A stretch of DNA of 64,000 nucleotides from Chloroflexota bacterium. Its GTDB lineage: Bacteria; Chloroflexota; Anaerolineae; B4-G1; SLSP01. The position numbers and the translations under genes were made by a program. A model generated the notes under the pieces. It searched no databases and was not told the origin of the DNA. It saw only the letters and a program-made list of their open reading frames with translations. Within the stretch, counting starts at the first letter, position 1; each line of letters starts with the position of its first letter. The stretch lies in the NCBI GenBank assembly GCA_019873725.1, contig JAIOAS010000002.1, positions 1,012-65,011 of the forward strand, given 5' to 3'. Positions 10,788 through 48,454 of the stretch are shown piece by piece.

Positions 10788-10862
10788 GGCGTGCGCCGGG
10801 GAAGGCCCGTGCGCCGCCCTGGTGGACGCGCGGTCTTCCCCGGCCTGAAAGGAGTCACACAG

Positions 10863-19875: not shown

Positions 19876-20010
19876 GCTAGTTGCTGGTTGCTGGAAGCTC
19901 GAAGCTGGAAACTGGAAGCTGGAAAAGCCAGTGACCAGCAACCAGCAACCAGTAACCAGTAACCAGTAACCAGCTTCCAGCATCAAGTATCCAGCTTCAA
20001 GTATCAAGAA
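19876..20010. repeat. CTGGTTG/CTGGAAG inverted tandem-heptamer hairpin element
   Basis: gctagttgctggttgctggaagctcgaagctggaaactggaagctgg ... ccagtgaccagcaaccagcaaccagtaaccagtaaccagtaaccagcttccagc. Confidence 0.65.
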
Positions 20011-23327: not shown

Positions 23328-23502
23328 ACCCCTTACCTCCAAACACTCCACGCCCACGCCCAATCCACCGATCTGCCTATAAGTATACCCATCCTCCCAC
23401 CCGCGCAACTCCTCTCCCCATATCTAGCGCCCCCTTCTTGCCTCCTTGCTTCTTCCCCGTTATACTAGGGGCATAACATTTGGCGTAACGAGGAACAGCG
23501 TG

Positions 23503-29564: not shown

Positions 29565-29862
29565 TTCTTCGCTTATCTCCGTTCGATCAGTATTTTTCTG
29601 TGTCACCGACTATAAATGAGTAAACGAAAGGGATATTTAATCTGTATTGTGCCACAAAACATACCGGATACAAGCTAACACTACAGCCTGATTCAAAGCA
29701 CGGCTTGCGCTTACTCCATCAAAACCCGGAGGCCGTGCCGCCTGGCTCTGACTCCCTCGGCAGCGGGAAGTGGAAATGCTATCTGATGGGCCGGAAGAGC
29801 CAGTCATCGATCCTGTATTAGCGGATGGTCAATCGGGAATGAGAGAGGCGGGGTAAAGGCAG

Positions 29863-32800
29863 TCAGCGATTCGCAGGGGGTTGGACGGCGGTGATTTCTT
29901 TCAGCAATTGGGCGGCCTGCTGCGCCAGTTGCACAAAACGCCGTTTGAGTTGTTCCGGCGACTCGCCCTGGATATTCACGAAGAATGGGTCGGTGGGATG
30001 CGGCTTTCTGCCGGCGAGGCGACCTCCCAGCACTTTGAGCAATGGCGCCCAGGGATAGCCATGCCGCTTCAGGCCGGAAATTGCTGTGGCGTCGAACGCC
30101 AGCGGGTAGCCGGTTTGCTCCAACAGACTGGGCTGCTGCCCCAATGCCAGTTCGACCAGCGCGGCATCCAGCAGCAGACGCCCGGCGCGCGCCAGCAGCG
30201 CCTCGCGCTGGATGTGCTGTAGCCGTTCCTGTCCGCGCTGCACGCGCGCCCATTCAGCTTCAGCGGCGGATTGCACCGCGGTTTGTGCCGCGGCGATCTG
30301 CGCTGGCGTCCAGGTGATGTCGCTCTCGGATTTCAGCGCCTTGCGCAGCTCCGCCAAACGTCCTACGGGCTGCAAGTTCCCCGTCTTATCCTGTGTGAAG
30401 TATCCCACCCGCGGCAACGGTTCAGCAATTGCAATGCGCAGGATCGTAGAAGGTACAGCCTTTGATGTTACATCGCCTGCGAGGTCGGGCAAACTCTGAA
30501 GCAATGCGTCCAGCAAGGGATTGCCAAACGTCAGCAGTCGCACGGTGTTGGGATGAGTGTCGAACACCTGACGGTCGAAGGTAACGGCAGTTTGTGCGCC
30601 TTCCAGACTTAGCCAGTAAGCTCCCGCTATCGTTTCGTGAGGCTGGAAGTGCGTTTTTAGCGTAGGCGCTTCAAGGATGGCGGAGGCCATCTCCGGCAAA
30701 TTGAAGGCAACCTGGTTGCCCGCTGCCCCTGTCGCTTCCACTTCGGGATGCGCGGCCCACTCATCGAGGTTTAGCTGCGCCGTTTGCCGATCCAGGGCCG
30801 CGTCAAGATCGGCCAATTCCTGTTGGAGCACTCGCTGCCGCTCCGCGTCGCCGGTCAACGCCACACGCTGGATGGCGCGCCCCACCTGCGCCAGGATGGG
30901 TTGCAGCGGCCCCACAACGTCCTGGAACCAATCGATCCGGTTGTTGAGCGCCTGGTACACTTTGGCTTCGACGGTCTCTTTGTAGAAATAGTTATAAATC
31001 CATACCCGCTCGTAACGCTGCCCAATGCGGTCCACGCGCCCGATGCGTTGCTCGACCCGCATGGGATTCCACGGCATATCGTAATTGATCAACACGCCGC
31101 ACGTTTGCAGGTTCAAGCCTTCGCTGGCCGCCTCGGTCGCCAACAGGATTTTGATCCGTTCGCCCTCGCGGAAGGCGTTTTTCAACTCTTCTTTGGTGAT
31201 GGGCATCCAGGCGTTGCCGTCCCACCATTCGCCGCCGCGCCCGCTATAGCAGGCGACCTGGCTGCCGTATTGCTGCCGCAGTTGCTCACGTAGAAAGTCC
31301 AACGTGTCGGTATATTGCGTAAACACCAGCGCCGTCTCGCGTTGGCGAAATGCGGTCCCCAGATCGTGTTGCAATTGCGCGACTTTGGAATCATGGCCAC
31401 TCAGCGCCTGCAACGCGTGCAGGAAATCTTCAACGTAGGCGATTTCCTCCTGGTACTCTGCCGCGTAGTCTGGATCACGCGCCACGGCGAGGTCTTCGTC
31501 TATATCGAGCGCCAGTACGTCCTGTTCCAGATCATCGTCGTCCCAGAGCAGATCAGCCTGCCCGCGCAGGAAAGCCAGCCGGCGATTCAGGCTGCATTGG
31601 ACAGCGTGAAAGCTGCTGGTGAGCCGCCGGCGGTAGACGGTCATCACAAACCCCAGCCCTTTGCGCTTGGCCTCGTACTTGCGGTAGAAGTTGCTGATGT
31701 ATTCTTCGATGCGCAGGTATAGCTCGCGTTCCTCTTCCCGCATATCAATCCAGATCAGACGAGGGTCGCGGTAAGGGACGTTCTCCCGCAACAATCCCCG
31801 GCGGACATAATCGCGCAGCAGTGGGCGCGTGTTGCGGAAAACCAGTCGGCGCAGCGGTGTCGTGCGTTGAAGCAACTCCGCAGCCAGCGTTTGTGCTGTG
31901 GGTGGCAGTTTCTTGAATCCGGCGGCAGCAGCCTGGGGGTCAGCTTCGAGGACCTGTTGGAGTTGCGCCCAATCGACTGCGCCCAAACGTTGTTGCGCCT
32001 TGTGCGACCATTCTGCGGAGACACCGTCCGCCGCGCCGTCCCCACCGGCCGCGCGTTCGGCCTGGAACATACGAAAGACGAAGTCCCAGTCCGGTTCTTG
32101 ACTGCGCAACTCGGTGTAGAAACGCAGGAAATTGCGCCCGTCAGCGCCCCATTCGCCGCTCAATCCAAGCAACGTGAGCAAATCCCACACTTCGATGGGA
32201 TCGACTTGCATCGGCGTGGCGGTCATCAAGAGTAGGGATTGGGTGCGCGCTTGCAAGCCGCGCAGCAATTCGAGCAATCGGTTGGGACGATAGGTGCGCT
32301 GATCGAGGAAATCTTTGCGGCGGGCGTGATGCGCTTCGTCGACGAGCACCAAATCCCAGGCGGCTGAGGTCAGTAATTCGGCCTGCCGATCCTGGCGCTT
32401 GAGGAGCTGGCTGGAGGCTAACGCCAGGTTGACGCTGTCCCAGGGATTCGGAGTGGATACGGGTTGGATTTGCTCCCAATAATCCACGAAATCCTTGCCG
32501 TTATACAGCGGGACGTTGAGGGCGAACTTCTCGTAGAGTTCTTCCTGCCATTGGCGCAGCACGGACTTGGGCGCGAGGATCACCGCGCGTTTGACCAGCC
32601 CGCGCAGCCAGAGTTCGCGCAGCACCAGCCCCGCTTCGATGGTTTTGCCCAGGCCGACTTCATCGCACAACAGATAGCGCGAGGGGTACGTCTCGACGAT
32701 CTGTCTGGCGACGGCAATCTGGTGCGGCCAGGGCGCTACCGGCGCCGTCGCTGTTCCCAAGCCGGCGCCATTGATCAGGTGTGGCGCATCCTGTAGGAAG

Positions 32801-33621
32801 CGGCTTACCCAACGTTCGCGTTCCACGGCTGAGGCCAGGAGCAGTTGGGGCTTGTGCTCCTCGGTGCGAGAGGGCTTTCCAGGTTCACATTCCAACGGAT
32901 CGCGGTTGGGTGCAGCGTGGGGCGTGTAGCGCAGCAGGCTTTGCCGCGCGGCTTCAGGCACAGGGAGCGAAATCCAATCCGGCTCGCGGTGTTCCCACAG
33001 ACGCTCGAAGCGCGCCACGGCCTCCGCCACCCATAGCCGCCCCTCATTCCACGAACAGAACACCATAAACTGTTCGTAGTTGTGTTCCCAGCCGGTTTCC
33101 GATTCGTTGATGCTGCCGCTAAAGGCGACCTGATGGCCCTCAGCGTCGGTGAAGATACCGACTTTCGGATGGAAGTAGTCGTGGGTGTCGGGCGCGGGGA
33201 GGGGCAAGCCGCCAGGACCTTTGGGGAGCACCACGCGGATGTCCAGGCGCTCGTGGGCTACCAACCAGGCCAACGCTTCCAACCGCGCGCGGAGCAGATG
33301 GTCGGTCAAGGTCTCTGGATCGGGCAAGCCCGGACCCAGGCTATTGGCGACCACATCAGGCAGGTTGTAGCCGGCTTCAATGGCCGCCACATCTTCCCGG
33401 CTGAGTTGCGCGCCGACGAGCAGGCGCATCCGTCCGCCGTTGGCGATGAGGTGCGCCACGCCTGCCGCCGCAATCGCCAGCGCGTGGCTGCTAAAGTAGC
33501 CCGTCATCCGGTCGTAACGCACGCTGGCGGTGAGGGCCGGGATGTAGAAGGTGTGCAGCCGGTCATCGCCGGGACCGTAGGAGAGGCGAAAAGAAAGGTC
33601 TGGCAGAAGATTAGCCATCAT
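29863..33621 (-). CDS. PLD-like (HxK) nuclease domain fused to SNF2/Rad54-family helicase
   Basis: PLD: YFHPKVGIFTDAEGHQVAFSGSINESETG. Helicase: LLCDEVGLGKTIEAGLVLREL, LVDEAHHARR, LLATEAASEGLNLQTCGVLINYDMPWNPMRVEQRIGRVDRIGQ. Start overlaps the upstream stop (ATGA). Confidence 0.8.
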   Translation of the reverse strand: MMANLLPDLSFRLSYGPGDDRLHTFYIPALTASVRYDRMTGYFSSHALAIAAAGVAHLIANGGRMRLLVGAQLSREDVAAIEAGYNLPDVVANSLGPGLPDPETLTDHLLRARLEALAWLVAHERLDIRVVLPKGPGGLPLPAPDTHDYFHPKVGIFTDAEGHQVAFSGSINESETGWEHNYEQFMVFCSWNEGRLWVAEAVARFERLWEHREPDWISLPVPEAARQSLLRYTPHAAPNRDPLECEPGKPSRTEEHKPQLLLASAVERERWVSRFLQDAPHLINGAGLGTATAPVAPWPHQIAVARQIVETYPSRYLLCDEVGLGKTIEAGLVLRELWLRGLVKRAVILAPKSVLRQWQEELYEKFALNVPLYNGKDFVDYWEQIQPVSTPNPWDSVNLALASSQLLKRQDRQAELLTSAAWDLVLVDEAHHARRKDFLDQRTYRPNRLLELLRGLQARTQSLLLMTATPMQVDPIEVWDLLTLLGLSGEWGADGRNFLRFYTELRSQEPDWDFVFRMFQAERAAGGDGAADGVSAEWSHKAQQRLGAVDWAQLQQVLEADPQAAAAGFKKLPPTAQTLAAELLQRTTPLRRLVFRNTRPLLRDYVRRGLLRENVPYRDPRLIWIDMREEERELYLRIEEYISNFYRKYEAKRKGLGFVMTVYRRRLTSSFHAVQCSLNRRLAFLRGQADLLWDDDDLEQDVLALDIDEDLAVARDPDYAAEYQEEIAYVEDFLHALQALSGHDSKVAQLQHDLGTAFRQRETALVFTQYTDTLDFLREQLRQQYGSQVACYSGRGGEWWDGNAWMPITKEELKNAFREGERIKILLATEAASEGLNLQTCGVLINYDMPWNPMRVEQRIGRVDRIGQRYERVWIYNYFYKETVEAKVYQALNNRIDWFQDVVGPLQPILAQVGRAIQRVALTGDAERQRVLQQELADLDAALDRQTAQLNLDEWAAHPEVEATGAAGNQVAFNLPEMASAILEAPTLKTHFQPHETIAGAYWLSLEGAQTAVTFDRQVFDTHPNTVRLLTFGNPLLDALLQSLPDLAGDVTSKAVPSTILRIAIAEPLPRVGYFTQDKTGNLQPVGRLAELRKALKSESDITWTPAQIAAAQTAVQSAAEAEWARVQRGQERLQHIQREALLARAGRLLLDAALVELALGQQPSLLEQTGYPLAFDATAISGLKRHGYPWAPLLKVLGGRLAGRKPHPTDPFFVNIQGESPEQLKRRFVQLAQQAAQLLKEITAVQPPANR

Positions 33622-34283
33622 TCTCGCTGAGGTTGTCTGTGTTCACAACCATTTTGGTCACACACTACCATTTCTAAGAAATATGCCAGGCTCCGATTCC
33701 TTTGCGCAGCTGTTGCTAACATTTGCATTTGTTCGGCGATCTCACCGGATTTCGATTTTTCGTACCGTACCCGTTTGGTATCCCGAGTGCCTTTTTCTTT
33801 GGCCACCTGACGAATAATATGGGTAATGGTTTCCTCCGCTTGAGACGGAGTATAGCCTTCTGTTTGCCCGCTTTGCTGGGGAGTATATCTGCTACCTCTA
33901 TTCCCAGCTTGAAAGCGTACAATCGCCTGCGTGTCGGTTAAGAGCCAACATTCAAGACAACTATGCGCCACAATTAACCCTACTATCATATCCTTTGGTG
34001 GGTCTTCGCAAAGTTCATCAAATGCTTGTGTAATCCGTCGCAGTAGGGCACGTTTGCTCGGATCATGAGGTTCTTGATCAACAACAAACATAACACAGTT
34101 ACACTGCTTATGCTGCGCGCTCGCTACCACCTTTTGCATCTTGGCAACGGTTTCTATTTCGTCTACTGAGTGAAACTCGACAAAAACGTGTGTGTTTATG
34201 CCATACTGCCGTCGCCAGTTTTCGGCCAGAATTTTGTAGGCAGCATTGCTCGAATCATCTACGGAGAGCAGTAAGCCCATCAA
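33618..34283 (-). CDS. DUF4276-like protein (putative Toprim/OLD-like partner of AAA_21 ATPase)
   Basis: 221-aa low-GC gene translationally coupled on both sides. Acidic/His-rich motifs (FVVDQEPHD, CLECWLL). Assignment to DUF4276 is from memory of the family consensus; low certainty. Confidence 0.4.
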   Translation of the reverse strand: MMGLLLSVDDSSNAAYKILAENWRRQYGINTHVFVEFHSVDEIETVAKMQKVVASAQHKQCNCVMFVVDQEPHDPSKRALLRRITQAFDELCEDPPKDMIVGLIVAHSCLECWLLTDTQAIVRFQAGNRGSRYTPQQSGQTEGYTPSQAEETITHIIRQVAKEKGTRDTKRVRYEKSKSGEIAEQMQMLATAAQRNRSLAYFLEMVVCDQNGCEHRQPQRE

Positions 34284-35998
34284 AACACCCCCTGATCCAA
34301 GATGTTTTTACGGGTCAGGTCGCCTAACCGATATTCATCCAGCCACGGCGCAAATTCTTCCGCCGTAACCGGCTCAAATGTGGTTTTTCCTTCTTCATCC
34401 CGTCGCGCAATGAACACTTGGAGATAGGATGCCTCTGCACGTAAATCAAAGCAATCCATAAAGTCGGGGCTGTGGGTCGTAATGACGATTTGTGGTCGCC
34501 GAAACTCCTGATCGTCCGACTCTGGCTCAAGATCTACGACTGAGCGGATAGCGTCGGCCAACCATAACATCAAATGAGGATGCAAGCCCCGATCTGGCTC
34601 TTCCAGACAGATCAAGGCGGCGCCTGGATCGCCGATAAGAACAGCCAATGTAGAGAGGAGACAAAGCGTGCCATCAGACATGCTTTCCGCTGGAATGGCA
34701 CGGCCAGGAAAGAATGTCTCGTTAAAAGCGATTTCAGCCTTGCCGGTTCCGCCAGTTACAGATGCGCGAAGCGTGGTTGTCAGGGATTGCGCTGCGCGAA
34801 TGGCGCTATGCAGGCGCTCCTGAATTTCCTCGAAAAGATCGTTTGTTGTTTCATTGTGCTTCAGAGCGTACAAAAAAGCACTTAGATTGCCAGCATTGTT
34901 TTGTAACGCTGGTATTTCTTCTCCTATGCTTTCTGGAATCACACTCTCCCGTGCAGCGCGCGGATCAACTTGAAGGAAACGCCAGCCCTGTATAAACCGA
35001 TACAAGTTTTCCAAAGGTGGGAAAGTCGTTTCCCGTCCGTACGTTGCTAAAGCGGCTGTCCGCAAAGGCAATTTCCCTTGCACTGGAAGGTATCGGGGAT
35101 GCTGGTTTTCGGGATCAGAATTGGGGTGCTCGGCGTAACGTTCCACTTTTCCGGCTTGCCGGTCAATGAAGGCGATTTCAGGTCCGATGGAATGCAACCT
35201 GAGCATCAAGCGCTCCCTATCGATAATCAGTCTGTCCCTTGCCTGCTTGATGGCTAGTTCGTAGCGCGGCGCAAAGCGTCCCTGCTGACCGGGAACTGCC
35301 ATTGTCAGATCAAATGTGAATTGCGGTTCGATTTCATCTGAAGTTCCATACCAAAACAGATGGCGGGCCATTTCCTGGTGCCCTTTTCCGATACCCTCAC
35401 TTGCCAGATCATGAACAAACCTTAAGGCTTTGAACAGATTTGATTTCCCGCTGGCATTTGGCCCGATGATGATATTGAGTTGTTTTAGTTCTATGCTAGA
35501 GTCAAAAATGCTTCTGAATCCGGTGATATGAATTTCTCGTAACAGGGGTGAGAAAACACGATGTTGTTGTTCCACAAAGGCCAAGGCTTCATCGGCTGTG
35601 ACGAGTTCGTTCCGTCCATTTTGTCTCACCCAATACGCTTCAAGCTCTTTCTGGCGATAGGGTTTGGCGTTATCATTTCCATACACACGCAACACGACAA
35701 CTGCGCCCCTTGCAGTTTCCACCGTTTCAATTTTGGGTGTTAAGGGCGGAGCGCAATGCTGTAAGCAGAGGTTTTCCAGTTGCGCTTGCAGGCGTTCAGG
35801 ATCCGGAACCCCGACAATTTCGGCAGCTCCGGCCTCGGCAGTTCCGGTCACGCCAAAAATGATCCATCCCTCAAAAACGCCGTTGGCGAACGCAATAACG
35901 GCAGGGAGCACCGCGGATACAGAGGTAAAGTCAGTTTTGAATGCGGTCCATCTGTTTTCACCCGCACTTATCCGCTCCCGTAAAACCTCCTCAATCAC
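34280..35998 (-). CDS. AlbA_2/Schlafen-like DNA-binding domain fused to AAA_21 (ABC/OLD-type) ATPase
   Basis: N-terminus LPAVIAFANGVFEGWIIFGVTGTAE (AlbA_2-like). Walker A NIIIGPNASGKSNLFKALRF. Walker B/D-loop ALICLEEPDRGLHPHLMLWLADAI. Confidence 0.6.
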   Translation of the reverse strand: MIEEVLRERISAGENRWTAFKTDFTSVSAVLPAVIAFANGVFEGWIIFGVTGTAEAGAAEIVGVPDPERLQAQLENLCLQHCAPPLTPKIETVETARGAVVVLRVYGNDNAKPYRQKELEAYWVRQNGRNELVTADEALAFVEQQHRVFSPLLREIHITGFRSIFDSSIELKQLNIIIGPNASGKSNLFKALRFVHDLASEGIGKGHQEMARHLFWYGTSDEIEPQFTFDLTMAVPGQQGRFAPRYELAIKQARDRLIIDRERLMLRLHSIGPEIAFIDRQAGKVERYAEHPNSDPENQHPRYLPVQGKLPLRTAALATYGRETTFPPLENLYRFIQGWRFLQVDPRAARESVIPESIGEEIPALQNNAGNLSAFLYALKHNETTNDLFEEIQERLHSAIRAAQSLTTTLRASVTGGTGKAEIAFNETFFPGRAIPAESMSDGTLCLLSTLAVLIGDPGAALICLEEPDRGLHPHLMLWLADAIRSVVDLEPESDDQEFRRPQIVITTHSPDFMDCFDLRAEASYLQVFIARRDEEGKTTFEPVTAEEFAPWLDEYRLGDLTRKNILDQGVF

Positions 35999-36012
35999 AT
36001 CTGGCCTCCTTC

Positions 36013-38856
36013 CTAAAATCCGTATTTCATCCGGCGCAATTCAAAGGCGAAAGCGCCGCCTTCCAGAATAGATTTGACCTGTTCGCACACCTCAGGGGTA
36101 TCCACAAAGCCGCTAGATAAAACGCGCGCATGTAAGTCTTTGTCCTCTTGTACGACATCCAAGGCAATGATCAGTTCAGCATCGCCGGCAACAGGAATGT
36201 TGGGATTGTGGGTTGTAAAGAGCATTTGACGTTTACCTCGTTCCGCGCGCAGGGTCTCGACAATCTCCTGATAAATAAAACGATTGTCCAAATCATCTTC
36301 GGGCTGATCAATAATCAACGGCTCATTCGACTCAAGCAGCAAAATGGATAGAATAGCCGTACAGCCTTGCCCAACGGATACGCCTTCCCCCAAACGCCGG
36401 CCCAAAGCGCGCCAGATTCCGGGAGTGCGGTCCCCTTCATCTAAGGCGATGTTCATCTCGATTGTGACGCGATCCGGCGGTTGCATTTCATCAAGTTCCA
36501 GGCGCGTTTTAAGGTCCAGGCGTTCACGTAACTTTTCGAGCCTGTCGCCGTCCAGGTTACAATACTGTCTGAGTTGGGTCAAAGCATCAGGGATGAACAA
36601 ACTGGCCTGGGGCTGCGGCAACCATTCGGCGTAAAGCGATTCTCCTGTATTTTCTCCTTCAGCAGCCTCGATCAATGCTAACAAGGGTAGTAAATGAGGG
36701 GATTGAGTTTGCACCAGAGCGTCATAATCGGTAGCGCGCAACCGCGTACCCCGCAAGTAACGCTCCCATACTTCACGTAGCCAGTCTGCATCACGGCCCT
36801 GTTCGACGGTGATCCGAATGCGCTGTAAACGGTTGGTGATACTTGCGGCCTTTTCCTGCCTTAACTCATATTGCTGTTTACTGTTCTCTACCAGTCGCCG
36901 CAGATATGCGCGACGTTGCGCAAATAGCTGCTGTAATTCGCGTCTGGATTTTTCAACTTCGCGTTCTAAACGTTCCAATTCTGCACGTTCGCGTTCAAGG
37001 CGTAATACACCATCCGGCGATAAATCCGGCAACGCGCTTAACGCCTCACGATAGCGCGTCTCAAACATGTCGCGCGCCTGCACCCAAGTCCCCTGCGCCT
37101 GCTCAATCTCGGTCTGCGCTTCCTTTAACCTTTCTTCAACTATTTGCCACGTAGCCTCCACATCTCGCGCCAGGCGTTGTATACGTTCGCCTAACCACTT
37201 CAACTGCGCTGCATTGGGTAGAGTCTGGAGAGTATCATCAGGCAATAAGGTTTCTGGCGGCGCTATACGACGTCGTGTTTCTTCGAGCACTTTGCCGGAT
37301 TGTCTCAGATGCAGCAAGGCGTCATCCCACCCCTGCATTTCACGGTCATAGAGACGTTTGGTTGCCGACAATTCCTGGATGCCCAATTGATGGTATTGGC
37401 GCAATTGTTCTTCAATCCGCGCTTTGCTTTTGAGACGCTCCTTCGTCTGTTTGATGCGTTCATACTCAGCGATAATCGCTTCACGATTACGGCGCAATTC
37501 GATCAACTGTGTATTATGCTCGCGCTTCAGTTGTTCTAAACTTTCCCCGACAAACCGATCCAACAACTCCAATTGTGAACTGACGTTCTCAGAAGTATAC
37601 AGGATTTCTTTCTGCCCGTAGAGTTGTGGCCGGAACACATCTACCGGACGCAAGTCTGTAGATAACCAATGCCCATTCGATTCACACCGTTCCACCTGCG
37701 TAGGGTTGCGTCCTTGTCGTACCAGACGATAGCGCGTGCGATCCTTGACGATCTCCAATTCGGCGCGCCCTGTTTCCGGCAAAAACACATCGGCAAATCC
37801 TCGAAGGTCTACTTCTTTGGTCCGTAAGGGTTCGATCTCCCATAAATAACGCAATAATTCCACCAGGGCTGATTTTCCGGTCCCACGTGCGCCAATGAGA
37901 CAATTCAGACGCGGGTTGAATTGCAGATTGATTTCACGCAGGAACCCGGTCGTATTGAATCCGTTTTGCTTAACCAAACGCAAGGCTGTTAGATAGCATC
38001 CTGGCTCTGGCGGCGGATTATCTCTTAGTCGTAGACGAGCCTGGGGGTCATGTAATGCATTTTTAAGCGCGGAGAAGTTGGGACATTCACATTTCACATG
38101 GGTAAACCATGTACCAATTTCTTCAAGCTGGTGAGCATCGGAGGCATTTAGACATGCAATTGGCCGTTCGCGTCGAAAATCAGCGTCGTTATGTTGATTG
38201 GTGACGACAAGCCGTTGCCATTCACTCAGTTCCGCAATGGTACTTTTGTGGATTTGTACGCCCAGGAGTTTGGGGTGACAAAAATCGCGTTTACGCTTAA
38301 GACCCTTGTTCGATTTTGAATCCAACAAACTGTCTTCAGAACTAAAAACATGCGCGGCAATCGCTATGCCATCGCGGTTTGCAATTGCCTGTACAACGTC
38401 GGTGAAACTGCGCGGCGTTGGAATACAAAATCCCGCATCTGTAAAGCGCTCCTTGAGGTCAAGATCATCATCCAAAAAGCGTTCGAGAATCTCAACCTTT
38501 GTATCTTCTGAGAAAATTGCCAAAATATGGATAGCGCCAAGGCCCCCTGAGGCGCTGACTTCTATTCCTGGCAACACAACGAAAGTTTCTCCATAGAGTT
38601 CCTTTGCCGCCTGTCTTAAAGGATCAATCCAGCTCGCGTCGTTGTGATTGGTAATCGCAATTGCGTCCAGTCCGGCTATTTCATGCGCTTGGCGGACATA
38701 ACGACGGGCAAAGGCAAGTTTCTCCTCCGGAGTCGCTGGTATCGCCTCGCCGTTCGGCATGGTGAAATGTTGCCCCACGCCGGGCGCATGTAGATGTATG
38801 TCAAACTTTTTGTAAGTTGCTCCCAAGCTCATCAACCGCTCCTTTGATCTAAACAC
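36013..38856 (-). CDS. PHP-domain phosphoesterase fused to SMC/Rad50-like coiled-coil ATPase
   Basis: PHP: KKFDIHLHAPG...AIAITNHND...GIEVSA. Walker A LIGARGTGKSALVELL, ~400 aa of coiled-coil-like sequence. C-terminal LIIDQPEDDLDNRFIYQEIVETL...LFTTHNPNIP (Walker B/D-loop/H-loop). Confidence 0.7.
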   Translation of the reverse strand: MFRSKERLMSLGATYKKFDIHLHAPGVGQHFTMPNGEAIPATPEEKLAFARRYVRQAHEIAGLDAIAITNHNDASWIDPLRQAAKELYGETFVVLPGIEVSASGGLGAIHILAIFSEDTKVEILERFLDDDLDLKERFTDAGFCIPTPRSFTDVVQAIANRDGIAIAAHVFSSEDSLLDSKSNKGLKRKRDFCHPKLLGVQIHKSTIAELSEWQRLVVTNQHNDADFRRERPIACLNASDAHQLEEIGTWFTHVKCECPNFSALKNALHDPQARLRLRDNPPPEPGCYLTALRLVKQNGFNTTGFLREINLQFNPRLNCLIGARGTGKSALVELLRYLWEIEPLRTKEVDLRGFADVFLPETGRAELEIVKDRTRYRLVRQGRNPTQVERCESNGHWLSTDLRPVDVFRPQLYGQKEILYTSENVSSQLELLDRFVGESLEQLKREHNTQLIELRRNREAIIAEYERIKQTKERLKSKARIEEQLRQYHQLGIQELSATKRLYDREMQGWDDALLHLRQSGKVLEETRRRIAPPETLLPDDTLQTLPNAAQLKWLGERIQRLARDVEATWQIVEERLKEAQTEIEQAQGTWVQARDMFETRYREALSALPDLSPDGVLRLERERAELERLEREVEKSRRELQQLFAQRRAYLRRLVENSKQQYELRQEKAASITNRLQRIRITVEQGRDADWLREVWERYLRGTRLRATDYDALVQTQSPHLLPLLALIEAAEGENTGESLYAEWLPQPQASLFIPDALTQLRQYCNLDGDRLEKLRERLDLKTRLELDEMQPPDRVTIEMNIALDEGDRTPGIWRALGRRLGEGVSVGQGCTAILSILLLESNEPLIIDQPEDDLDNRFIYQEIVETLRAERGKRQMLFTTHNPNIPVAGDAELIIALDVVQEDKDLHARVLSSGFVDTPEVCEQVKSILEGGAFAFELRRMKYGF

Positions 38857-38920
38857 TGAACGCTCTCATCCCTATTCTACAACAACTTCCTCAGAAGCCG
38901 CACACAAGTCGCCCTCTGTC

Positions 38921-38990
38921 CATTCCAGTATCGAGCTTCCAGCATCCAGCCTCAAGCTTCCAGCTTCCAGCATCCAGCCTCAAGCCCCAA
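38921..38990. repeat. GCTGGAA/GCTGGAT tandem repeats forming the methyltransferase C-terminal tail
   Basis: cagtatcgagcttccagcatccagcctcaagcttccagcttccagcatccagcctcaagc. Confidence 0.5.
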
Positions 38991-41900
38991 CTTCCCCTGC
39001 ACCATCTCCACCCGCTCCTCTTCCTCCGCCGGGACCTCCAACGCCTCGAAGAACGCCGCGCGGATGCCGTCCAGCGCCGCCGCCTCCGGGCGGACGAACT
39101 TGCCCTTGACCTTGCCGCGCGGCACGGCATTGATGAACGCTTGCAGCGCCGCCTTGAACGCGCCATCCGCGCCCAAACCGCTCTTCTTGAGGAACGCCTC
39201 GCAGGCCGCCGCGCCATCCTCCGCGTAGACGAGCATCACGGTATGGACGGCGTCCAGCCAGGTGTCGTAGTGTTTGGCTTCGGGGTCCACTTTGCCACGC
39301 GCGCGGCGCTGTTTGGGTTGGAGCATGGTGACGTCGCTGCCGCTCTTGCTGATGACGCGCTGCGCCACCAGATCGCGCTCCACGTCCAGCCCCAGCGCCA
39401 GGGCGAGCTTGCGTGCTTCGTCCGCCGGGAAGGTCTCCGCCTGGAACGCATCCCACGCCATCAACGCCCAATCGGTGACGGGATCGAACTGCACGTCGCG
39501 CCCCAGGAGCAGGCCGCGCTTGCGTAAGGCAATGACTTCTTCGCGGGCCAGATCGAGCGCGGTTTCCGGGCGCAAGGCTCTGGGCTGCCCGGTGCGTTCG
39601 TCCACCTCGCGGGTGAGGACGGGCCAGCGTTCGGAAATGACGGCGAGCACGGGGCCAAAGGTGCTCAGGTAAAGATCGACGCCGCTGATGCCCTGCGCGT
39701 TGAACTCCGCCGCCTTCTCGCGGGCCACAGCGCGCACGCGCGGCGCGAGATCGTCCCACCAGACGGGTTGCTCGAAGCTGGAAGCTGGATACTCGATACT
39801 GGAAGCTGGTTGCTGGATGCTGACGGCTGATAGCTGACGGCTGACGGCTGACGGCTCGCTGCGTTTCCGGCACACCAGCAGTATCGTGCTCTGCGCGGCG
39901 TTTTTCTTGGCCTGGTGGAGGGAGTGCTCGCTTTCGGTGTGGACGGGCCACGAGGCGGTAATGGTGAACCCGGCGTTGATGAGCGCCATCGCCAGGGTGT
40001 CCCACGCTTCGACCTGTTTGTGGGTGAACATCACGGTGAGGACGCCGTCGTCGCGGAGGACGCGCGCCATCTCGCGGAAGGACGCGCCCATTTTGCGCTC
40101 GTAGTCCTGCGCGGCCATCTCCCGTTTGTTGCCGCCCAGATCGGTAAAGCGGGCAGGATTGGCAACGGCTTCGGCGTCCTTGTCGGTGAGTTGGGCAGCG
40201 AACCACTCCGGGTAGAGGTGGCCCACGGTGCGCTTGAGCCACACGTAGAAAAAGTCCGCGAGTTCTGCGTACATCACGTTGTCGTAGTAGGGCGGGTCGG
40301 TGACGATGACATCCACCGAACCATCCGCCAGCGCGGCGAGGCGGGCGGCGTTGCCTTGAAGCTGCGTAAGCGGGCCGCGTGCCATTGCCGCCGTTCCCAA
40401 CTTCGCCGGCGCGAAGGCAAGCAAATCGGCCATATCTTTGTAGGCATCGGCAACTTGACTGATGGCCCACGGCATCAAGTTGGCCGAAGCGTCGAATTCA
40501 CCGTGACTCCAGACAAAAGCGTAATCGTGGCGGTCGAAATTGCTGCGCAGCCCTCGGCTTGGGTCGAAACGGCACAGCCGGTTGTTATAGATCACCATCT
40601 TGTCCATCATCAGACCGAGATAAGCTTCGATGGCAGGAGCGCGTTCTTCGCCCAAGACTTTATAGATTTCAGGGCGTAGTTCTGACAAAGTTTCGATGGC
40701 TGTCCCCATCGCTAACAGTTGTCGCGGTGAGAAGAAGTCCGACCAGATCGGCATCCCGTACAATGCCGGCCGCATATCATTGCCCTGTGGGAACGCCTCC
40801 GTCGGAATCAAATCCCGTGCTTCCCACAGCGGACGTCTGCGAGCCAGTTCCGCCTCCGCCGCCGCGACGGCGTCCAGGTCGGCCTCGGTGGGCGCGCGGA
40901 AGTCGAAGCCGCCACGCCGTTTGAGCGCCACCGAGTAGAGCATCTGCCCCATGCGCCCGGCCTGCGCCTCGGCTTTGATGTAGTCGCCGTCAATGGCGTC
41001 GCCGGTCCACGGGGAGCGGCCTGTGCCCCGGCTCACCGTGCCTTCGTCGGGGTCGTACTGTAAGGGTGAGGCATCCCCACCCACACCGTCGTTCACTACC
41101 TCCCATGCGTCTTCCGTGGTGTCTTGACGATTACGTTGATTGCCGGGATGCCTCGCCCGTACGATCTCGAAGCGCGGCGCATCCCAGGCCGGGTCGGTCA
41201 GCACGCGGACGGCTATGGGCGGGGATTTGCTCAGCCACCAGTTAGGGCTGAGTGGGACGGGCTTTCCCGTCACCGGGCAGGCGACGGTCCGCGCCCAGAG
41301 GTAGGCGAAGATGTTCTCGCCTTTACCCTTGGGGAAATACGGTGCGAGTTTCTCCTGTACCCGTTTGGCCCACACATTCCCCCACTTTTTGATGTCCGCC
41401 GCCAGTTCCGGGCCGAACGTCGCAGGGTAGTCGAGTGTGGCCTTGAGGATGACGCACGCCACAGGGTTGAGTTCGTTGGCAATGGTCGCCAGCCCGTAGC
41501 GCCGCGCCTCAAAAGGAATCGAACCGCCGCCAGCAAAGGGATCGAGGACGACGACGTCTTTCAAAGACCTGACAGGTCTCGGAAGACCTGTCAGGTCTAG
41601 CAGTTTCTCGAAAAGCGCCAGGTCGTCGGCTTCAGGGTTGACGGTGAAGGCGCGGGCATAACCATAGGGATTCGCACCCAGGTCTTCGCCGGTTACACGG
41701 GCATTGAGCAGTATCTGGCGCATCTTTGCCGGATCCCCCTTGATGCCGAGGAACCGCAGGAACCAGGCGCGATAGGCGGCCTCGTCGTCGAAAGGATTCG
41801 TAGCACAGGCTTCCAGCCTGTCCCACGCCGGCAACAACGAAGCCACAATCGCCGCGCGGGAGATCGTCAACGGGCGGCGCGCCCACCAGACATGGAGACG

Positions 41901-42008
41901 GTTGAGCGGAGGCTTCTGCGCCGCGCTCGCATCGCGCAGGCTCTCCGCGCCGATGGCGTCGAAGGGGAGCCAGGATTCGATGAGGGATTGGGGGTGGTCA
42001 GATGACAT
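38952..42008 (-). CDS. DUF1156-family N6-adenine DNA methyltransferase
   Basis: N-terminus ESWLPFDAIGAESLRD...LHVWWARRPL (DUF1156), LDPFAGGGSIPFEARRYG (SAM-binding motif I), DPPY-like VIVTDPPYYDNVMY. An internal S/Q/A-rich linker and the C-terminal tail are encoded by repeat elements. Confidence 0.7.
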   Translation of the reverse strand: MSSDHPQSLIESWLPFDAIGAESLRDASAAQKPPLNRLHVWWARRPLTISRAAIVASLLPAWDRLEACATNPFDDEAAYRAWFLRFLGIKGDPAKMRQILLNARVTGEDLGANPYGYARAFTVNPEADDLALFEKLLDLTGLPRPVRSLKDVVVLDPFAGGGSIPFEARRYGLATIANELNPVACVILKATLDYPATFGPELAADIKKWGNVWAKRVQEKLAPYFPKGKGENIFAYLWARTVACPVTGKPVPLSPNWWLSKSPPIAVRVLTDPAWDAPRFEIVRARHPGNQRNRQDTTEDAWEVVNDGVGGDASPLQYDPDEGTVSRGTGRSPWTGDAIDGDYIKAEAQAGRMGQMLYSVALKRRGGFDFRAPTEADLDAVAAAEAELARRRPLWEARDLIPTEAFPQGNDMRPALYGMPIWSDFFSPRQLLAMGTAIETLSELRPEIYKVLGEERAPAIEAYLGLMMDKMVIYNNRLCRFDPSRGLRSNFDRHDYAFVWSHGEFDASANLMPWAISQVADAYKDMADLLAFAPAKLGTAAMARGPLTQLQGNAARLAALADGSVDVIVTDPPYYDNVMYAELADFFYVWLKRTVGHLYPEWFAAQLTDKDAEAVANPARFTDLGGNKREMAAQDYERKMGASFREMARVLRDDGVLTVMFTHKQVEAWDTLAMALINAGFTITASWPVHTESEHSLHQAKKNAAQSTILLVCRKRSEPSAVSRQLSAVSIQQPASSIEYPASSFEQPVWWDDLAPRVRAVAREKAAEFNAQGISGVDLYLSTFGPVLAVISERWPVLTREVDERTGQPRALRPETALDLAREEVIALRKRGLLLGRDVQFDPVTDWALMAWDAFQAETFPADEARKLALALGLDVERDLVAQRVISKSGSDVTMLQPKQRRARGKVDPEAKHYDTWLDAVHTVMLVYAEDGAAACEAFLKKSGLGADGAFKAALQAFINAVPRGKVKGKFVRPEAAALDGIRAAFFEALEVPAEEEERVEMVQGKLGLEAGCWKLEA
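39772..39856. repeat. heptamer repeats (CTGGAAG + GCTGACG types) inside the DUF1156 MTase coding sequence
   Basis: gaagctggaagctggatactcgatactggaagctggttgctggatgctgacggctgatagctgacggctgacggctgacggc. Confidence 0.6.
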
Positions 42009-42069
42009 AAAAGAATCTCCCTACAGTGTAGTATCATGCATAATGTATGATGTTATGCTAAAAACGTTA

Positions 42070-42852
42070 TCACTTGGTTCGCGTCATTTCAATGAGCAGG
42101 AACTTACCTGACTGTAAATACGCCTTCCTGTATTCAAGCTCACCGTTTCGGCGCTGGAAAACTATGATAAGTTCGTTATCACTTAACCAAGTATAATCCA
42201 AGACCTGGTAAGCTATGTCGGTAACACGCAGAACCTGTTGCCCATCAGTGCGAGCAGCAAAAAGCTCAACCACTTCGCTTTTCACGGATTGAGCGGGAAA
42301 CACGACCCATGCGCCGTCAGGCGAAAAGGCTGGTGCCAATGTCGTCAGTATCACAAAGTCGGTGTGCAGACCGGTTGTACCAGAGTGAAATGTTGGCATC
42401 GTAAGCGTACGGGATATAAGGTCTAGAGTATACAAGTTCACTACAGAGTCGCTCTGACCATAAAAAGCAATTCGTTCGGTTTCCTTATGGTAGACTGGCT
42501 GAATTTCCTCGACTGTTGGACTTCGTGTGAGATAATCACATGAATATGTCGCCGTTACTGTTTCACAAATGTACAGATCGTTATCTTCTATCATCACAAA
42601 TCGAGAAGGCACCGTCTGGCTGTAAGGTAGCGTCAATAAACGAGAGGAGGCATCTGGCAAAACCACATCGCTTACAGGATTCTTAGATAATATAGGGCGA
42701 TATAAAATGGCACTAACAATGCACAAAGTCAGTATCAACAAAATTCCAAGTAAGGGCAAATTAATACGGATATACCACCATAGTTTATCAAATACCCCCG
42801 GTTTAGGATCATAGGTCGGGGAGCCTGCAGCCGATTCAAACTCTTCAGACAT
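42070..42852 (-). CDS. membrane-anchored partial beta-propeller (PD40/TolB-like) protein
   Basis: N-terminal TM (INLPLLGILLILTLCIVSAIL). SPDGAWVVF and DGQQVLRVTD PD40-like strands. The locus is markedly AT-richer than its flanks. Confidence 0.4.
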   Translation of the reverse strand: MSEEFESAAGSPTYDPKPGVFDKLWWYIRINLPLLGILLILTLCIVSAILYRPILSKNPVSDVVLPDASSRLLTLPYSQTVPSRFVMIEDNDLYICETVTATYSCDYLTRSPTVEEIQPVYHKETERIAFYGQSDSVVNLYTLDLISRTLTMPTFHSGTTGLHTDFVILTTLAPAFSPDGAWVVFPAQSVKSEVVELFAARTDGQQVLRVTDIAYQVLDYTWLSDNELIIVFQRRNGELEYRKAYLQSGKFLLIEMTRTK

Positions 42853-42857
42853 AACAC

Positions 42858-43178
42858 TTAACCAATCAGATGGTGCCTAATCTTGTTTCGTAGTCCTTTA
42901 TGATGCTCTAGTACGCCAGTAAACTCTGGCTGGGTCTGAGCATCCTGATTGACCAATATCCGGTTGGCTTGGCGCCATGCTTTCCAGGCTTCAGAATAGT
43001 CACCTTTGTTTAGAGCATTATCGACCTCTATATGTAACTTAATGACCTGCCCTCTAGCATTATCAGATACTTCGGTGCCATCACCACTTAAACCAGGAAG
43101 AGACCTGATATTGGAGAAAGTCACCAGTCTGCCAAATCCCAGAACGCTGCCTATCCAAACAATGATATCTCTGATCAT
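42858..43178 (-). CDS. hypothetical small protein
   Basis: 106-aa ORF in the AT-rich insert, coupled spacing to neighbours. No recognisable domain. Confidence 0.3.
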   Translation of the reverse strand: MIRDIIVWIGSVLGFGRLVTFSNIRSLPGLSGDGTEVSDNARGQVIKLHIEVDNALNKGDYSEAWKAWRQANRILVNQDAQTQPEFTGVLEHHKGLRNKIRHHLIG

Positions 43179-43196
43179 TTTCTTGCCCTTCTTCCA

Positions 43197-44210
43197 CTAG
43201 CTTTGTGCCTGTTTTCGCGAAAGTGCATCATAATCAAAAATCTCTATTGCTGCGTTGGGGTCCTGATCGCGGAAAAAGCGACTAACATACTTCCATCGTT
43301 CGCGCTCATCTTCATCATCGATGAAATACCTCAATCCCAGGTGCTCGCGTAATTCGTCTTTATGAAGCGTAAACGCAACCTTAACTGTATGTCCCCAGGC
43401 TAATGCCCCCTGAATTGCAAAAACGTAGAAAATATAAGCCACAAAACACGTAATGATGGCCTGCAATATTACCGAGTACCAGAAGTCAAAACTTTGAAGA
43501 ACAGGAGCAAATAGAAAGTCAGTGTAGAGTAACTCACCACCAAATATTAGCGTGATAATGCTCATGTTTAGCAGGAAATCCAAGAGCGATTTTTCGGCAG
43601 CAACGGAAGTCGCATAACCGCTTTTCTGTAAAAATGGTACAAGATAAGGCCACAAAGCCACAGAATCAATACCGTAAAGCACAGAAGGATATTGTTCGGC
43701 GCAAGCAATGACATTGCCTAGCCGTGTCGGCAAAATACGACGGAGCTCATGTTGAGGATAAATGTAATTGAGTTCCTCTTTGCAAACGTTTCTTTGCACC
43801 TCGGCCTTTGAGCGCTCCGGTGAACCTGCAGGGGACTTCTCAGCCAATTCCCGCCATTTTCCATACTCCCTTTTAAGGTAAAAGACTCGCCGTTCGTTAG
43901 AATCGCGCAACCATTGCCCAATCCCTGTCCACAGCCACGGATAGCCTTCAAAAAGGCGGATAATACTGATATTCAGAACGTTCAAGGCATATGCAACCAC
44001 AAGGATAGCAAAACCAGCGATCATACCTGAGGATAAATCAAGGTTCAATGCCTGCAAATGCTCAAATAATCTTGTACCCTGGAAACGTGGCCAAACAAAC
44101 GCGATATTAAGTCCAACCAAAATCACCGAAGGCAGCAGCATATCAAAGCGCAATACCTGTAGAAACAAAGCTACTAAATCTGATAGTGTTTTTACGAGAA
44201 CAGTCATGCT
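43197..44210 (-). CDS. polytopic membrane protein, unknown function
   Basis: Start MTVLVKTLSDL. At least 5 predicted hydrophobic helices and a charged C-terminal domain. AT-rich. Confidence 0.4.
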   Translation of the reverse strand, partial: SMTVLVKTLSDLVALFLQVLRFDMLLPSVILVGLNIAFVWPRFQGTRLFEHLQALNLDLSSGMIAGFAILVVAYALNVLNISIIRLFEGYPWLWTGIGQWLRDSNERRVFYLKREYGKWRELAEKSPAGSPERSKAEVQRNVCKEELNYIYPQHELRRILPTRLGNVIACAEQYPSVLYGIDSVALWPYLVPFLQKSGYATSVAAEKSLLDFLLNMSIITLIFGGELLYTDFLFAPVLQSFDFWYSVILQAIITCFVAYIFYVFAIQGALAWGHTVKVAFTLHKDELREHLGLRYFIDDEDERERWKYVSRFFRDQDPNAAIEIFDYDALSRKQAQS

Positions 44211-44221
44211 TTGCTCCTTAC

Positions 44222-45241
44222 TTATTCCTCCGCCAGCAGTACCCGTAACGCCTTCTGCGCACGAATGGCATCCGGCCCGGCGGTGCATTTGCTGAACCAG
44301 TAATAGGCTTCCTCACCGCTCATCGCCTGGATGCCCTGCCCAATCGCCTCGATGCGATCCTGGCGCGTCAGCGGCTTCACCGCCAGCAAGATCAGCGCCA
44401 GGCGCAGCCCCGTCGGTTCGTCAAGGTAGAAAGGCTTGTCGCTGCCCACAGCGCGGGCCAGGTCGGTGGCCTTGTAGCCATTGGCGCGCAGCGCCGCGAG
44501 CAGGTGCTCGGTCGTCGCGTGGAGCGTCTGCGCATCCACGTCCACGCTCCACAACGCCTGTGCGGCGGGCTTTGTGGCCTGCTCGTAAGCGAATTTGGCA
44601 GTCTGCCGCCCATTGAGCCACTGGTATAACGCCGCGCGGTAGCCCCCGGCAGGATCAGGCAACGTGTAGAGCACAAAAGGCCGGGCCGGGTCGGGTTGGA
44701 AGCTGGGTGCTGGTTGCTGGATACTGGTTGCTGGTTGCTGGATGCTGGATGCTGGATGCTCGATGCTGGATGCTGGATGCTCGATGCTGGATGCTGGTTG
44801 CTGAGGGCTGACCGCTGACTGCTGATAGCTAATAGCTGACGGCTGACGGCTGATAGCTGATGGCTGATCGCTGACATCGAAGAGACGGCGGCGGCCGGCG
44901 GTATGCAGCGGTGCGGGCAGGCGTTGCGGAGCGGCGAAGAACCAGCCAAAGCACGGCGCGCCGGGAAAGGGTTGGTCCAGGCGGTGCTGGGCTTGCAAGG
45001 CTGCGTAAGATTCGGCGTCCAGCGCGCGGATCTCGACCAGTTCCACCGTCCCGAGGAGTGCGCCGTAGGCCAGCGCATCGGGATCGAAGCCCAGGGCGCG
45101 GCAGCGTGCGTCCCGGCGCGTGGCGGCGGCGTGCACTGCCAACGGGCCGCGATAGGCCGTCTGCCAGGTGCGGATGTCCACCGTCTTTTCACCGCGGACG
45201 ATCTGCTCCGCGCGCGGCTGGTGGAAGCTCAAAGCTTTCAC
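44222..45241 (-). CDS. ASCH-domain protein fused via repeat-encoded linker to DUF3780-like C-terminal domain
   Basis: ASCH: MKALSFHQPRAEQIVRGEKTVDIRTWQTAYRGPLAVHAA...GTVELVEI. Linker SDQPSAISRQPSAISYQQSAVSPQQPASSIEHPASSIEHPASSIQQPATSIQQP encoded by heptamer repeats. The C-terminal ~170 aa sit in the position expected for DUF3780 in DUF1156/DUF499 cassettes. Confidence 0.5.
   Translation of the reverse strand: MKALSFHQPRAEQIVRGEKTVDIRTWQTAYRGPLAVHAAATRRDARCRALGFDPDALAYGALLGTVELVEIRALDAESYAALQAQHRLDQPFPGAPCFGWFFAAPQRLPAPLHTAGRRRLFDVSDQPSAISRQPSAISYQQSAVSPQQPASSIEHPASSIEHPASSIQQPATSIQQPAPSFQPDPARPFVLYTLPDPAGGYRAALYQWLNGRQTAKFAYEQATKPAAQALWSVDVDAQTLHATTEHLLAALRANGYKATDLARAVGSDKPFYLDEPTGLRLALILLAVKPLTRQDRIEAIGQGIQAMSGEEAYYWFSKCTAGPDAIRAQKALRVLLAEE
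44698..44876. repeat. heptamer repeats (CTGGATG/CTCGATG + GCTGACG types) inside the ASCH-DUF3780 coding sequence
   Basis: ggatgctggatgctggatgctcgatgctggatgctggatgctcgatgctggatgctggttgctgagggctgaccgctgactgctgatagctaatagctgacggctgacggctgatagctgatggctgatcgctgac. Confidence 0.65.
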
Positions 45242-48200: not shown

Positions 48201-48276
48201 CAGCAAAAATGTCTTCAGTCAATTGCCCCTGCAAGACTTCGGGCCGAGGCGTACAGGTATCAAAAACGAGTTGCAT
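45238..48276 (-). CDS. DUF499-family ATPase
   Basis: MQLVFDTCTPRPEVLQGQL...ILRLETAFGGGKTHNLIALYHAARG matches the P-loop and N-terminal region of DUF499. RBS aggagg 6 nt upstream of the ATG at 48276. The longer ORF-track start at 48576 is unlikely. Confidence 0.6.
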   Translation of the reverse strand: MQLVFDTCTPRPEVLQGQLTEDIFAARLKDVLDGKAVPVYQNPTTFFENTYPTAGLRLLLTEALGRLTGARPASSPILRLETAFGGGKTHNLIALYHAARGQDLPAALMPQVVDPALLPAPDQVRIAGVVGSDLDPTTGLYHADANLRTFTLWGELAYQLGGPAGYALAQESDQHRSAPGTGLFAELLGDRPTLIMLDEVARHMRAAQSVPTATGKSDLAEQTVAFLMSLLEFAASRANVVVVLTLAGAEDAFAKETDQLRAHLAEAYKVSARQERVITPTGETEIAAIVRHRLFATIDAQAAAETAQAYTEAYRRWHEQNVALPTQALTAEYAQALAAAYPFHPELLNALTLRVATIPNFQKTRGALRLLALVVRRVWEERPADAWFIAPYHVDLRNTEIAEDLTSRLERPAFRQVIEADIVSPKGAAPGHAYQIDGPWVMTGKPRYARRVATTVFLHSLVQGAISGIAPPELLLGALAPGDEPALVHKAAERLYDKGWFFEWDGLRYRFKPEPSINKIINDEMQLVGLTTAKAELDARIRKVWKSGAFKVIYFPQEADDVDDDADAPKLVVLHYDAASATATAPQPPELARKLAARAGAMEGYRRFPNNLLFLVADGERVDDVVDTVRYYLGINRITGDAQRMQEFTEEQRKKIKKLGESAELDVRVGITKVYRHCYFPQADALQRDGYLMHEMLPAQDQGDVQKDQSDVVLRVLRQQQKALTGNEQMLSAAYVKSRAWDANLTQMTTEDLRKAFARRLSLPMLFDLNQLKKTILNGIKTQTWIYYDARAEMGYDHDSPPPAVQIADEAYLYLPAEAARLGLPIKGKVIITPPPEEPCPVCGKPQSQCTCGEDIIITPPPTEKPLRGAGVPQQAFQQLSDICHDRQITHIQTLRIALQGQGQAGARALRTVGVVIPQLNAPAARVQLRSAAEFGEDESATFTVDLAWERYRQLKAATDDLAKLADKFTMTLTLILRFPEGLAVDSDAFRTLHEVLTTVGLDVIQLDAEEK

Positions 48277-48454
48277 ACCACCTCCTGTGGCCTGGAAATG
48301 GGTCGTGATCCGTCTACAGTTTATCATCTTTTGGGGAAGGATGCAAATGTACTTGCTATAGGGCACAATCTTCCTTGCTTTTTCGCAGCCTGACGTTATA
48401 GTTAGGGTATGCACATTGTCGTATTCCGGTTCTTGAGATGACTTCAAGCTATCT

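Follow-up and report, generated by a model that had tools for sequence, protein, structure and literature searches.

Ppl is described as a single-gene defence system that combines an ATPase with a PHP domain (PMC11482910), and the same article cites Gao et al. 2020 for the E. coli system. PMC13434339 names Xu et al., Mol Cell 2026, as the source of the Ppl mechanism. In the summary given by PMC12904381, E. coli Ppl is a 3'–5' exonuclease on single-stranded DNA, its activity residing in the PHP domain and being inhibited by nucleoside triphosphates (NTPs); there, the inhibitory NTPs are reported to be bound to both domains, and activation is ascribed to 3'-OH ends produced by phage homing endonucleases. 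Hma systems are known hot spots for embedded defence genes, and HEC-01 (Hma-embedded candidate 01) consists of an ATPase and a TOPRIM-like protein (bioRxiv 10.1101/2024.01.29.577857). Here we analyse a stretch of 64,000 nucleotides from a Chloroflexota bacterium (GenBank assembly GCA_019873725.1, contig JAIOAS010000002.1, positions 1,012–65,011; hereafter the window), in which a minus-strand gene at 36013–38832 encodes a PHP domain fused to an ABC ATPase. We read this PHP–ABC protein as an anti-phage member of the TrlF/Ppl family and its gene as the first of a co-acting, mobile three-gene cassette inside an Hma operon, and we put the probability of this joint reading at about 80%. The family membership, the fold, the intact motifs, the mobile cassette and the defence context are shown here. 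The protein itself is of a known kind, and its operon appears to be a variant that has not yet been described.

The PHP–ABC protein matches the NCBIfam model NF045780, 'TrlF family AAA-like ATPase', with 441.8 bits (E 8.3e-132) against a cut-off of 350, and the match extends from end to end, placing residues 4–938 on positions 2–944 of the 944-position model. The PADLOC hidden Markov model for Ppl (PDLC02208) gives 3.4e-44 and 149 bits, with the best stretch at query residues 1–653, and the NCBIfam Spaf_1101 model also matches. The NCBIfam Ppl model NF042955 gives 1.6e-57, its 195.1 bits standing against an equivalog cut-off of 1000. Judged by these profile scores, the protein shares homology with Ppl without being its equivalog. 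The initial annotation, which was made from the sequence alone, had presented the gene as a candidate novel effector; this description has to be withdrawn in view of the TrlF and PADLOC Ppl matches, the existing RefSeq annotation and the published description of Ppl. Our literature search did not reveal where the name TrlF comes from.

An exhaustive HMMER search recovers 1,099 representatives of the TrlF/Ppl family at 50% identity (E ≤ 1e-30), and pattern scans locate at least 576–590 loci in each of two collections, one of genomes and one of metagenomes. The clade to which the window protein belongs is a small branch of this family, comprising 27 clusters at 90% identity that are at least 41% identical to the window protein in BLASTP, or, at the 50% identity level, about 9 of the roughly 1,100 representatives. 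Most of the family is no more than 25–34% identical to the window protein among the matches listed. RefSeq annotates TrlF genes on E. coli chromosomes and on many plasmids from numerous genera; among complete E. coli genomes, 38 of 5,426 have one. One site adjoins a Type III restriction–modification system, and a few phages carry relatives. A metagenome scan with the window protein alone returned no matches, and a scan with the clade alignment yielded for the most part distant members of the family, with two clade loci among the matches listed. Relatives at 100% and 87% identity lie on contigs of only about 3 kb.

The open reading frame at 36013–38856 on the minus strand opens with GTG and has 947 codons. 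This confirms the frame of the 947-residue polypeptide given in the initial annotation, but translation more probably starts at the ATG at 38832, which lies six bases past an AAGGAG Shine–Dalgarno sequence and from which 939 codons and a stop are read. The spacing from the AAGGAG, a database protein (P0001) of exactly 939 residues that is 100% identical, and the invariance of M1 in the clade alignment all favour this start, and residues are numbered here in the 939-residue form. The PHP domain (residues 1 to about 270; 38023–38832) carries the complete metal-ligand motif set of HxH, H, E, H, H and DxH, formed by H13xH15, H63, E91, H102, H161 and D232xH234. The N-lobe of the ABC ATPase (residues 279–416; 37585–37998), recognized by its matches to Rad50/SMC N-lobes, contains the Walker A motif G314-ARGTGKS321 (residues 314–321; nucleotides 37870–37893) and the Q-loop residue Q407. 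The C-lobe (residues 788–939; 36016–36471) completes the ABC motif set with the signature S819xGQ822, the Walker B motif and D-loop I840-IDQPEDDLD849 (within residues 839–849; nucleotides 36286–36318) and the H-loop residue H875; Pfam AAA_21 matches this C-terminal part at residues 830–879. Across 60 homologues, most of the PHP and ABC motif residues are invariant or at least 90% conserved: G314, G317, G319, K320 and Q407 in the N-lobe and G821, Q822, D842, P844 and E845 in the C-lobe are invariant, and Q843 and H875 are at least 90% conserved. H13/H15 and H234 are kept in the window clade but not throughout the family.

In ABC ATPases, the catalytic glutamate normally follows directly after the Walker B aspartate. 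The TrlF/Ppl family has a glutamine (Q843) at this position family-wide, within D842-Q843-P844-E845, and the invariant glutamate, E845, stands two residues on. This D-Q arrangement recalls the E-to-Q substitutions that have been engineered into such ATPases to trap ATP. A D-Q-P-E sequence would suit a switch that senses nucleotides more readily than a fast motor.

The AlphaFold2 model of the PHP–ABC protein, built on the 60 homologues, is confident, with a pLDDT (predicted local distance difference test score) of 88.6 and a pTM (predicted template modelling score) of 0.79. Residues 1 to about 270 adopt the alpha/beta PHP barrel, and the two lobes of the ABC head are split by antiparallel helical arms of about 250 residues. 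This helical hairpin (residues 417–668; 36829–37584) ascends through residues 417–523, turns at an apex of residues 524–540 and descends through residues 541–668, with pLDDT values of about 80–97. In both the sequence and the AlphaFold2 model, the apex (PPETLLPDDTLQTLPNA) contains no Cys pair or CxxC and no globular domain. The arms are followed by a helical insert of about 100 residues (682–780; 36493–36789), which separates the coiled coil from the signature motif and has no match in a Pfam family search. The coiled-coil-like region of about 400 residues proposed initially is accordingly a composite of the coiled coil, of about 250 residues (417–668), and the insert. Foldseek places the heads of Rad50, SMC and RecN as the best structural matches and also aligns the model to the heads of Smc, MukB and JetC together with their coiled coil. 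The motifs, the AlphaFold2 fold and the Foldseek matches confirm the proposed fusion of a PHP phosphoesterase to a Rad50/SMC-like ATPase, and they place the N-domain in the PHP superfamily and the C-domain among the SMC/Rad50-like ABC ATPases, as had been predicted. No Ppl or TrlF structure was found in the PDB, by sequence or by fold.

The gene is the first of three consecutive minus-strand genes that form a cassette in an Hma operon, with the methylase gene on one side and the helicase gene on the other. The second gene (34280–35998) begins 14 nucleotides past the stop of the PHP–ABC gene, has its own GGAGG in the gap and encodes a protein of 572 residues, in which an AlbA_2 domain (residues 14–132; Pfam SLFN_AlbA_2, 4e-14) precedes an ABC ATPase of the HEC-01A type (Pfam AAA_21, 4e-27; PADLOC HEC-01A, 7e-45). 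The NCBIfam MAD3 model also matches this protein, at 2.8e-19. The third gene (33618–34280) encodes a DUF4276-like protein of 220 residues counted from its ATG; its start overlaps the stop of the second gene by one nucleotide, and its own stop overlaps the ATG of the helicase gene in the sequence ATGA. It scores 24.8 bits with Pfam DUF4276, below the cut-off of 30.2, and weakly with PADLOC HEC-01B (4.5e-4); its orthologues give DUF4276 and RloB matches, and its conserved residues are D10, D69-x-E71 and E111. Others have reported the DUF4276 protein to be TOPRIM-like.

The surrounding Hma set is complete on the minus strand, with HmaA, HmaB and HmaC types spanning 29863–48576. The HmaA-type protein (29863–33621) combines PLD and SNF2 helicase domains by Pfam and matches the PADLOC models BrxHI, PLD_Helicase and HmaA (2e-67); the HmaB-type DNA methyltransferase (38952–42008) matches Pfam DUF1156 and N6_N4_Mtase and PADLOC HmaB (4e-77); and the HmaC-type DUF499 ATPase (45238–48576) matches HmaC at 2e-108. 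An ASCH/DUF7680 protein of the Hma locus, assigned by family matches, is encoded at 44222–45241. Two low-GC cassettes split this operon, at 42070–44288 and at 33618–38832. The G+C content at third codon positions (GC3) is 43–50% in the three genes of the latter, compared with 72–78% in the flanking genes (72.5% in the helicase gene and 77.9% in the methyltransferase gene). The low-GC insert noted initially is thus real, but it extends to the helicase gene and includes the AAA_21 gene and the third gene. Our observations indicate that the cassette is horizontally mobile, low in GC and set frame-tight between the Hma methylase and helicase genes.

Comparison with related loci reveals that the three genes are inherited as a unit. 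In all informative clade loci (L085/86, L171–173, L087, L083/84, L088 and L092), at 43–64% identity, the order PHP–ABC, AAA_21 ATPase, DUF4276 is retained. The neighbourhood analysis suggested in the initial annotation thus puts the gene at the head of a conserved cassette of three genes, where that annotation had seen a single-polypeptide effector. The same Hma slot is occupied in L085/86, at 64% identity, and in L171–173, and the cassette of L087 also lies within Hma. In L083/84 (49% identity), the intact trio stands beside fragments resembling the Hma DUF499 ATPase (55%) and helicase (46%), located at 9218–9883 and 15248–15502; the host Hma has apparently decayed while the embedded cassette survived. 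The identity ladders of the three cassette proteins run in parallel across the clade, and 11 pairs of clusters of these proteins have longest contigs of identical size. In every relative examined, the trio has a GC3 of 33–62%, compared with 57–86% in its neighbours. In L171–173, further genes are embedded at 308–2098 and 10422–11115, namely a CAP-domain protein between the DUF7680 and methylase genes, and a small open reading frame with a PIN-domain gene (VapBC-like) between the DUF4276 gene and the helicase gene. Among the 170 family loci examined, those of the window clade included, 15 have at least two Hma components nearby.

The wider family mostly carries a different AlbA_2 partner. De novo clustering of neighbours assigns the gene directly downstream to one family in 61 of 79 loci, and among the 141 fetched family loci with enough sequence (L003–L170), 101 (72%) have a same-strand gene directly downstream that encodes an AlbA_2 + HATPase_c_4 protein of about 400 residues, so that most of the TrlF/Ppl family looks like a two-gene module. 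The AlbA_2 domain of the window partner aligns with those of these canonical partners at 28% identity over 99 residues (E 2e-8), and among AAA_21 relatives the AlbA_2 domain is present only in the window clade. No paper on an AlbA_2 (Schlafen-like) partner of the family was found in the searchable literature, and a literature search combining PHP, Schlafen, ABC ATPase and defence likewise found no paper. The closest AAA_21 relatives without AlbA_2 (L174–176, 8001 to about 14000; 39–40% identity) lie in a MADS-like arrangement, with an N6_N4 methyltransferase and proteins of about 234, 380 and 570 residues as neighbours. From this arrangement and the MAD3 match, it looks as if several systems have taken up the AAA_21 ATPase and its small partner as a module.

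By homology with E. coli Ppl, the PHP–ABC protein would be kept inactive in the uninfected cell by NTPs that occupy its ATPase heads and its PHP site, and phage infection would bring both a fall in NTPs and DNA 3'-OH ends. The PHP domain would then degrade DNA as a 3'–5' exonuclease, and phage replication would stop. We propose that the three cassette products work jointly. Coupling of the partner to the PHP–ABC protein would be the task of the AlbA_2 domain, because this domain accompanies PHP–ABC genes in two different partner architectures, and the AAA_21/DUF4276 pair would add a sensor–nuclease arm like those of OLD and PARIS. Carried to its full extent, this proposal would make the cassette an undescribed three-component system, in which a PHP exonuclease–ABC protein is coupled via AlbA_2 to a second ABC ATPase and a TOPRIM-like DUF4276 nuclease, and would make most TrlF/Ppl proteins two-component and AlbA_2-dependent; we advance this extension tentatively, at somewhat under even odds. 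The near-exclusive residence of the window clade between methylase and helicase genes, together with the translational coupling to the helicase gene, could further mean that the clade serves as an accessory arm of Hma and not as an independent cargo.

The co-action of the three genes must be set against the view that two independent systems are stacked here, a self-sufficient Ppl-like gene and a HEC-01-type pair, co-inherited through a single Hma slot. Such stacking would agree with the description of Ppl as a single-gene system and with the definition of HEC-01 as an ATPase and a TOPRIM-like protein; moreover, the AAA_21 relatives at 39–40% identity have other partners and no PHP–ABC gene, and Hma slots accept several unrelated cargos, as illustrated by the VapBC-like pair and the CAP-domain gene of L171. 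However, the order and tight spacing of the trio are kept over 43–100% identity, inside and outside Hma, and one compositional signature is common to the three genes and unlike that of their neighbours. The confinement of AlbA_2 on AAA_21 proteins to the window clade, and its presence beside 72% of the wider family, also speak against two unrelated arrivals, and we consider stacking unlikely, if still the main rival reading. A different division of labour is conceivable within the cassette, in which the PHP domain acts as a nucleotide-binding or phosphatase sensor and the killing is done by the DUF4276 protein or another partner. About two-thirds of the family loci have Q-x-N in place of H-x-H in the first PHP motif, from which it follows that many relatives may lack the canonical metal site, and the third-ligand position is a glutamine in the window clade; NTPs are also reported, in the summary of PMC12904381, to bind the Ppl PHP domain. 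Yet that summary describes the PHP domain of E. coli Ppl as an exonuclease, and the window protein retains H13, H15, H63, E91, H102, H161, D232 and H234, which makes a purely sensory PHP domain improbable here.

The resemblance of the ATPase to the Rad50, SMC and RecN heads, its best structural matches, could instead suggest a housekeeping function in repair, namely an analogue of SbcCD/Mre11–Rad50 for hairpins and double-strand breaks in which PHP replaces the calcineurin-like nuclease. PHP domains are known as polymerase proofreading exonucleases, a role cited in bioRxiv 10.1101/2025.09.30.679545. A core repair function is hard to reconcile with a gene that lies in a low-GC foreign cassette within a defence operon and whose relatives occur in a patchy and mobile manner (on plasmids, in 38 of 5,426 E. 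coli genomes, beside Type III restriction–modification), and the nearest characterized relative is an anti-phage protein; we regard the repair function as highly improbable.

Several observations weigh against the reading of the locus as a co-acting TrlF/Ppl-type defence cassette. Ppl is one gene and the window clade has two conserved partner genes, and the window protein is about 25% identical to Ppl-like proteins such as P0099; with 195 bits against the cut-off of 1000, the transfer of the Ppl mechanism is an extrapolation. In the window clade, the HxH motif is followed by PGxGQ, in which the candidate extra ligand is Gln21 or His22 and not Asp; at this place the ligand of canonical PHP proteins is acidic or a His, so that the PHP metal site may differ here. 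The AAA_21 partner lacks the AlbA_2 domain in L088 and L092, both of which lie outside Hma, and the pair of an AAA_21 and a DUF4276-like protein also occurs without a PHP–ABC gene, in MADS-like loci. The model of the DUF4276-like protein is poor (pLDDT 62), and its Foldseek matches are only generic alpha/beta proteins with E > 1e-3, which do not confirm a TOPRIM fold. In addition, HEC-01 gave no protection in its sole published test (bioRxiv 10.1101/2024.01.29.577857).

Additional features surround the cassette. The second low-GC cassette (42070–44288, minus strand), which is flanked by the ASCH/DUF7680 gene and the gene for the Hma methylase, has a GC content of about 45% and a GC3 of 42–44% and contains open reading frames of 363, 106 and 260 residues. 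These have no Pfam or PADLOC matches and no relatives in the loci examined, and their NCBIfam matches are all sub-threshold; that of the 260-residue frame is a weak lasso-peptidase/beta-propeller-like match. By the logic of 'guilt by embedding', this second cassette is a candidate defence module. Adjoining the Hma DUF499 gene and divergent from it, a second PLD + helicase protein of 921 residues (48455–51220, plus strand; GC 53%) matches PADLOC 'HKD+Snf2' at 8.7e-26 and is probably another defence gene, extending the island. Upstream of the island, the minus strand encodes an 816-residue protein with CHAT protease and FGE-sulfatase domains (20958–23408) and a 1,490-residue protein with a C-terminal choice-of-anchor D/Ig-like domain (25134–29606).

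The intergenic region upstream of the PHP–ABC gene (38833–38951) carries about eight TCCAGCA heptanucleotide repeats, which continue into the methyltransferase gene at its 3' end. Imperfect heptanucleotide tandem repeats are found at 38924–38978, 39769–39856, 44697–44875, 5324–5360 and 19928–19973, with TGGATGC x15, TCCAGCA x8 and GCTGACG x11 as examples. Some lie inside the Hma methylase frame and the linker of the ASCH/DUF7680 frame, where the frame would shift if the repeat number changed; further ones occupy intergenic positions in other parts of the window, for which reason the repeats look like a genome-wide short-repeat feature. A promoter and terminator scan of the cassette gave nothing above shuffled sequence, and no Rfam family or tRNA was found in or near it, making an RNA component such as a retron unlikely in the cassette.

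The architecture flagged initially is already known, and the value of the present analysis lies in the correct annotation of the protein as a Ppl/TrlF-type defence nuclease–ATPase. Experimental work on its E. coli relative points to a mechanism that can be tested. As judged from about 140 loci, the TrlF/Ppl family is mostly not single-gene and has a conserved AlbA_2 partner. A small branch has exchanged the usual partner for an AlbA_2–AAA_21 ATPase and a DUF4276 protein, and the trio moves as a compositionally distinct cassette, almost only inside Hma, providing a clean example for 'guilt by embedding'. If the partners are required, the single-gene models published for Ppl would account for no more than a part of the family's biology.

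Our comparison with known systems places the window protein closest to the TrlF family (NF045780), with which it shares the arrangement of a PHP domain, a split ABC ATPase and a helical hairpin, as well as the DQPEDxLDN and THNxN motifs. The differences occur in motif I, which reads HxH-PGxGQ in the window protein and QxN in most members, and in the partners, AlbA_2–AAA_21 and DUF4276 instead of the usual AlbA_2 + HATPase_c_4 protein. In about two-thirds of the family, motif I is A-x-Q-x-N (e.g. CALQVNP) in place of D-x-H-x-H, and the PHP site of this majority clade may be altered or inactive; both the Ppl-like clade and the window clade keep HxH. With Ppl, the window protein shares homology over its whole length, the PHP and NTPase domains and the defence-island context; the canonical Ppl-like proteins, however, have HxHTPASxD after motif I, whereas the window protein has HxHAPGxGQ. 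Mre11–Rad50 and SbcCD differ in several respects: their nuclease is calcineurin-like, whereas the window protein carries a PHP fold fused in cis, and its coiled coil is short, with about 105–125 residues per arm and an apex without the CxxC zinc hook. Its Walker B motif is D-Q and not D-E, and its gene is mobile and defence-linked, in contrast to the core repair genes of those systems. Unlike SMC proteins, it has no hinge domain. For the partner pair, the closest described systems are HEC-01 and, grouped with it, the ABC-ATPase + TOPRIM pairs OLD, Gabija and PARIS. The pair downstream of the PHP–ABC gene matches HEC-01A (7e-45) and, weakly, HEC-01B/DUF4276, and it is Hma-embedded as in Payne et al. 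By contrast, its ATPase bears an extra N-terminal AlbA_2 domain that is absent from other HEC-01A-like proteins, and a PHP–ABC gene invariably stands in front of the pair in the window clade.

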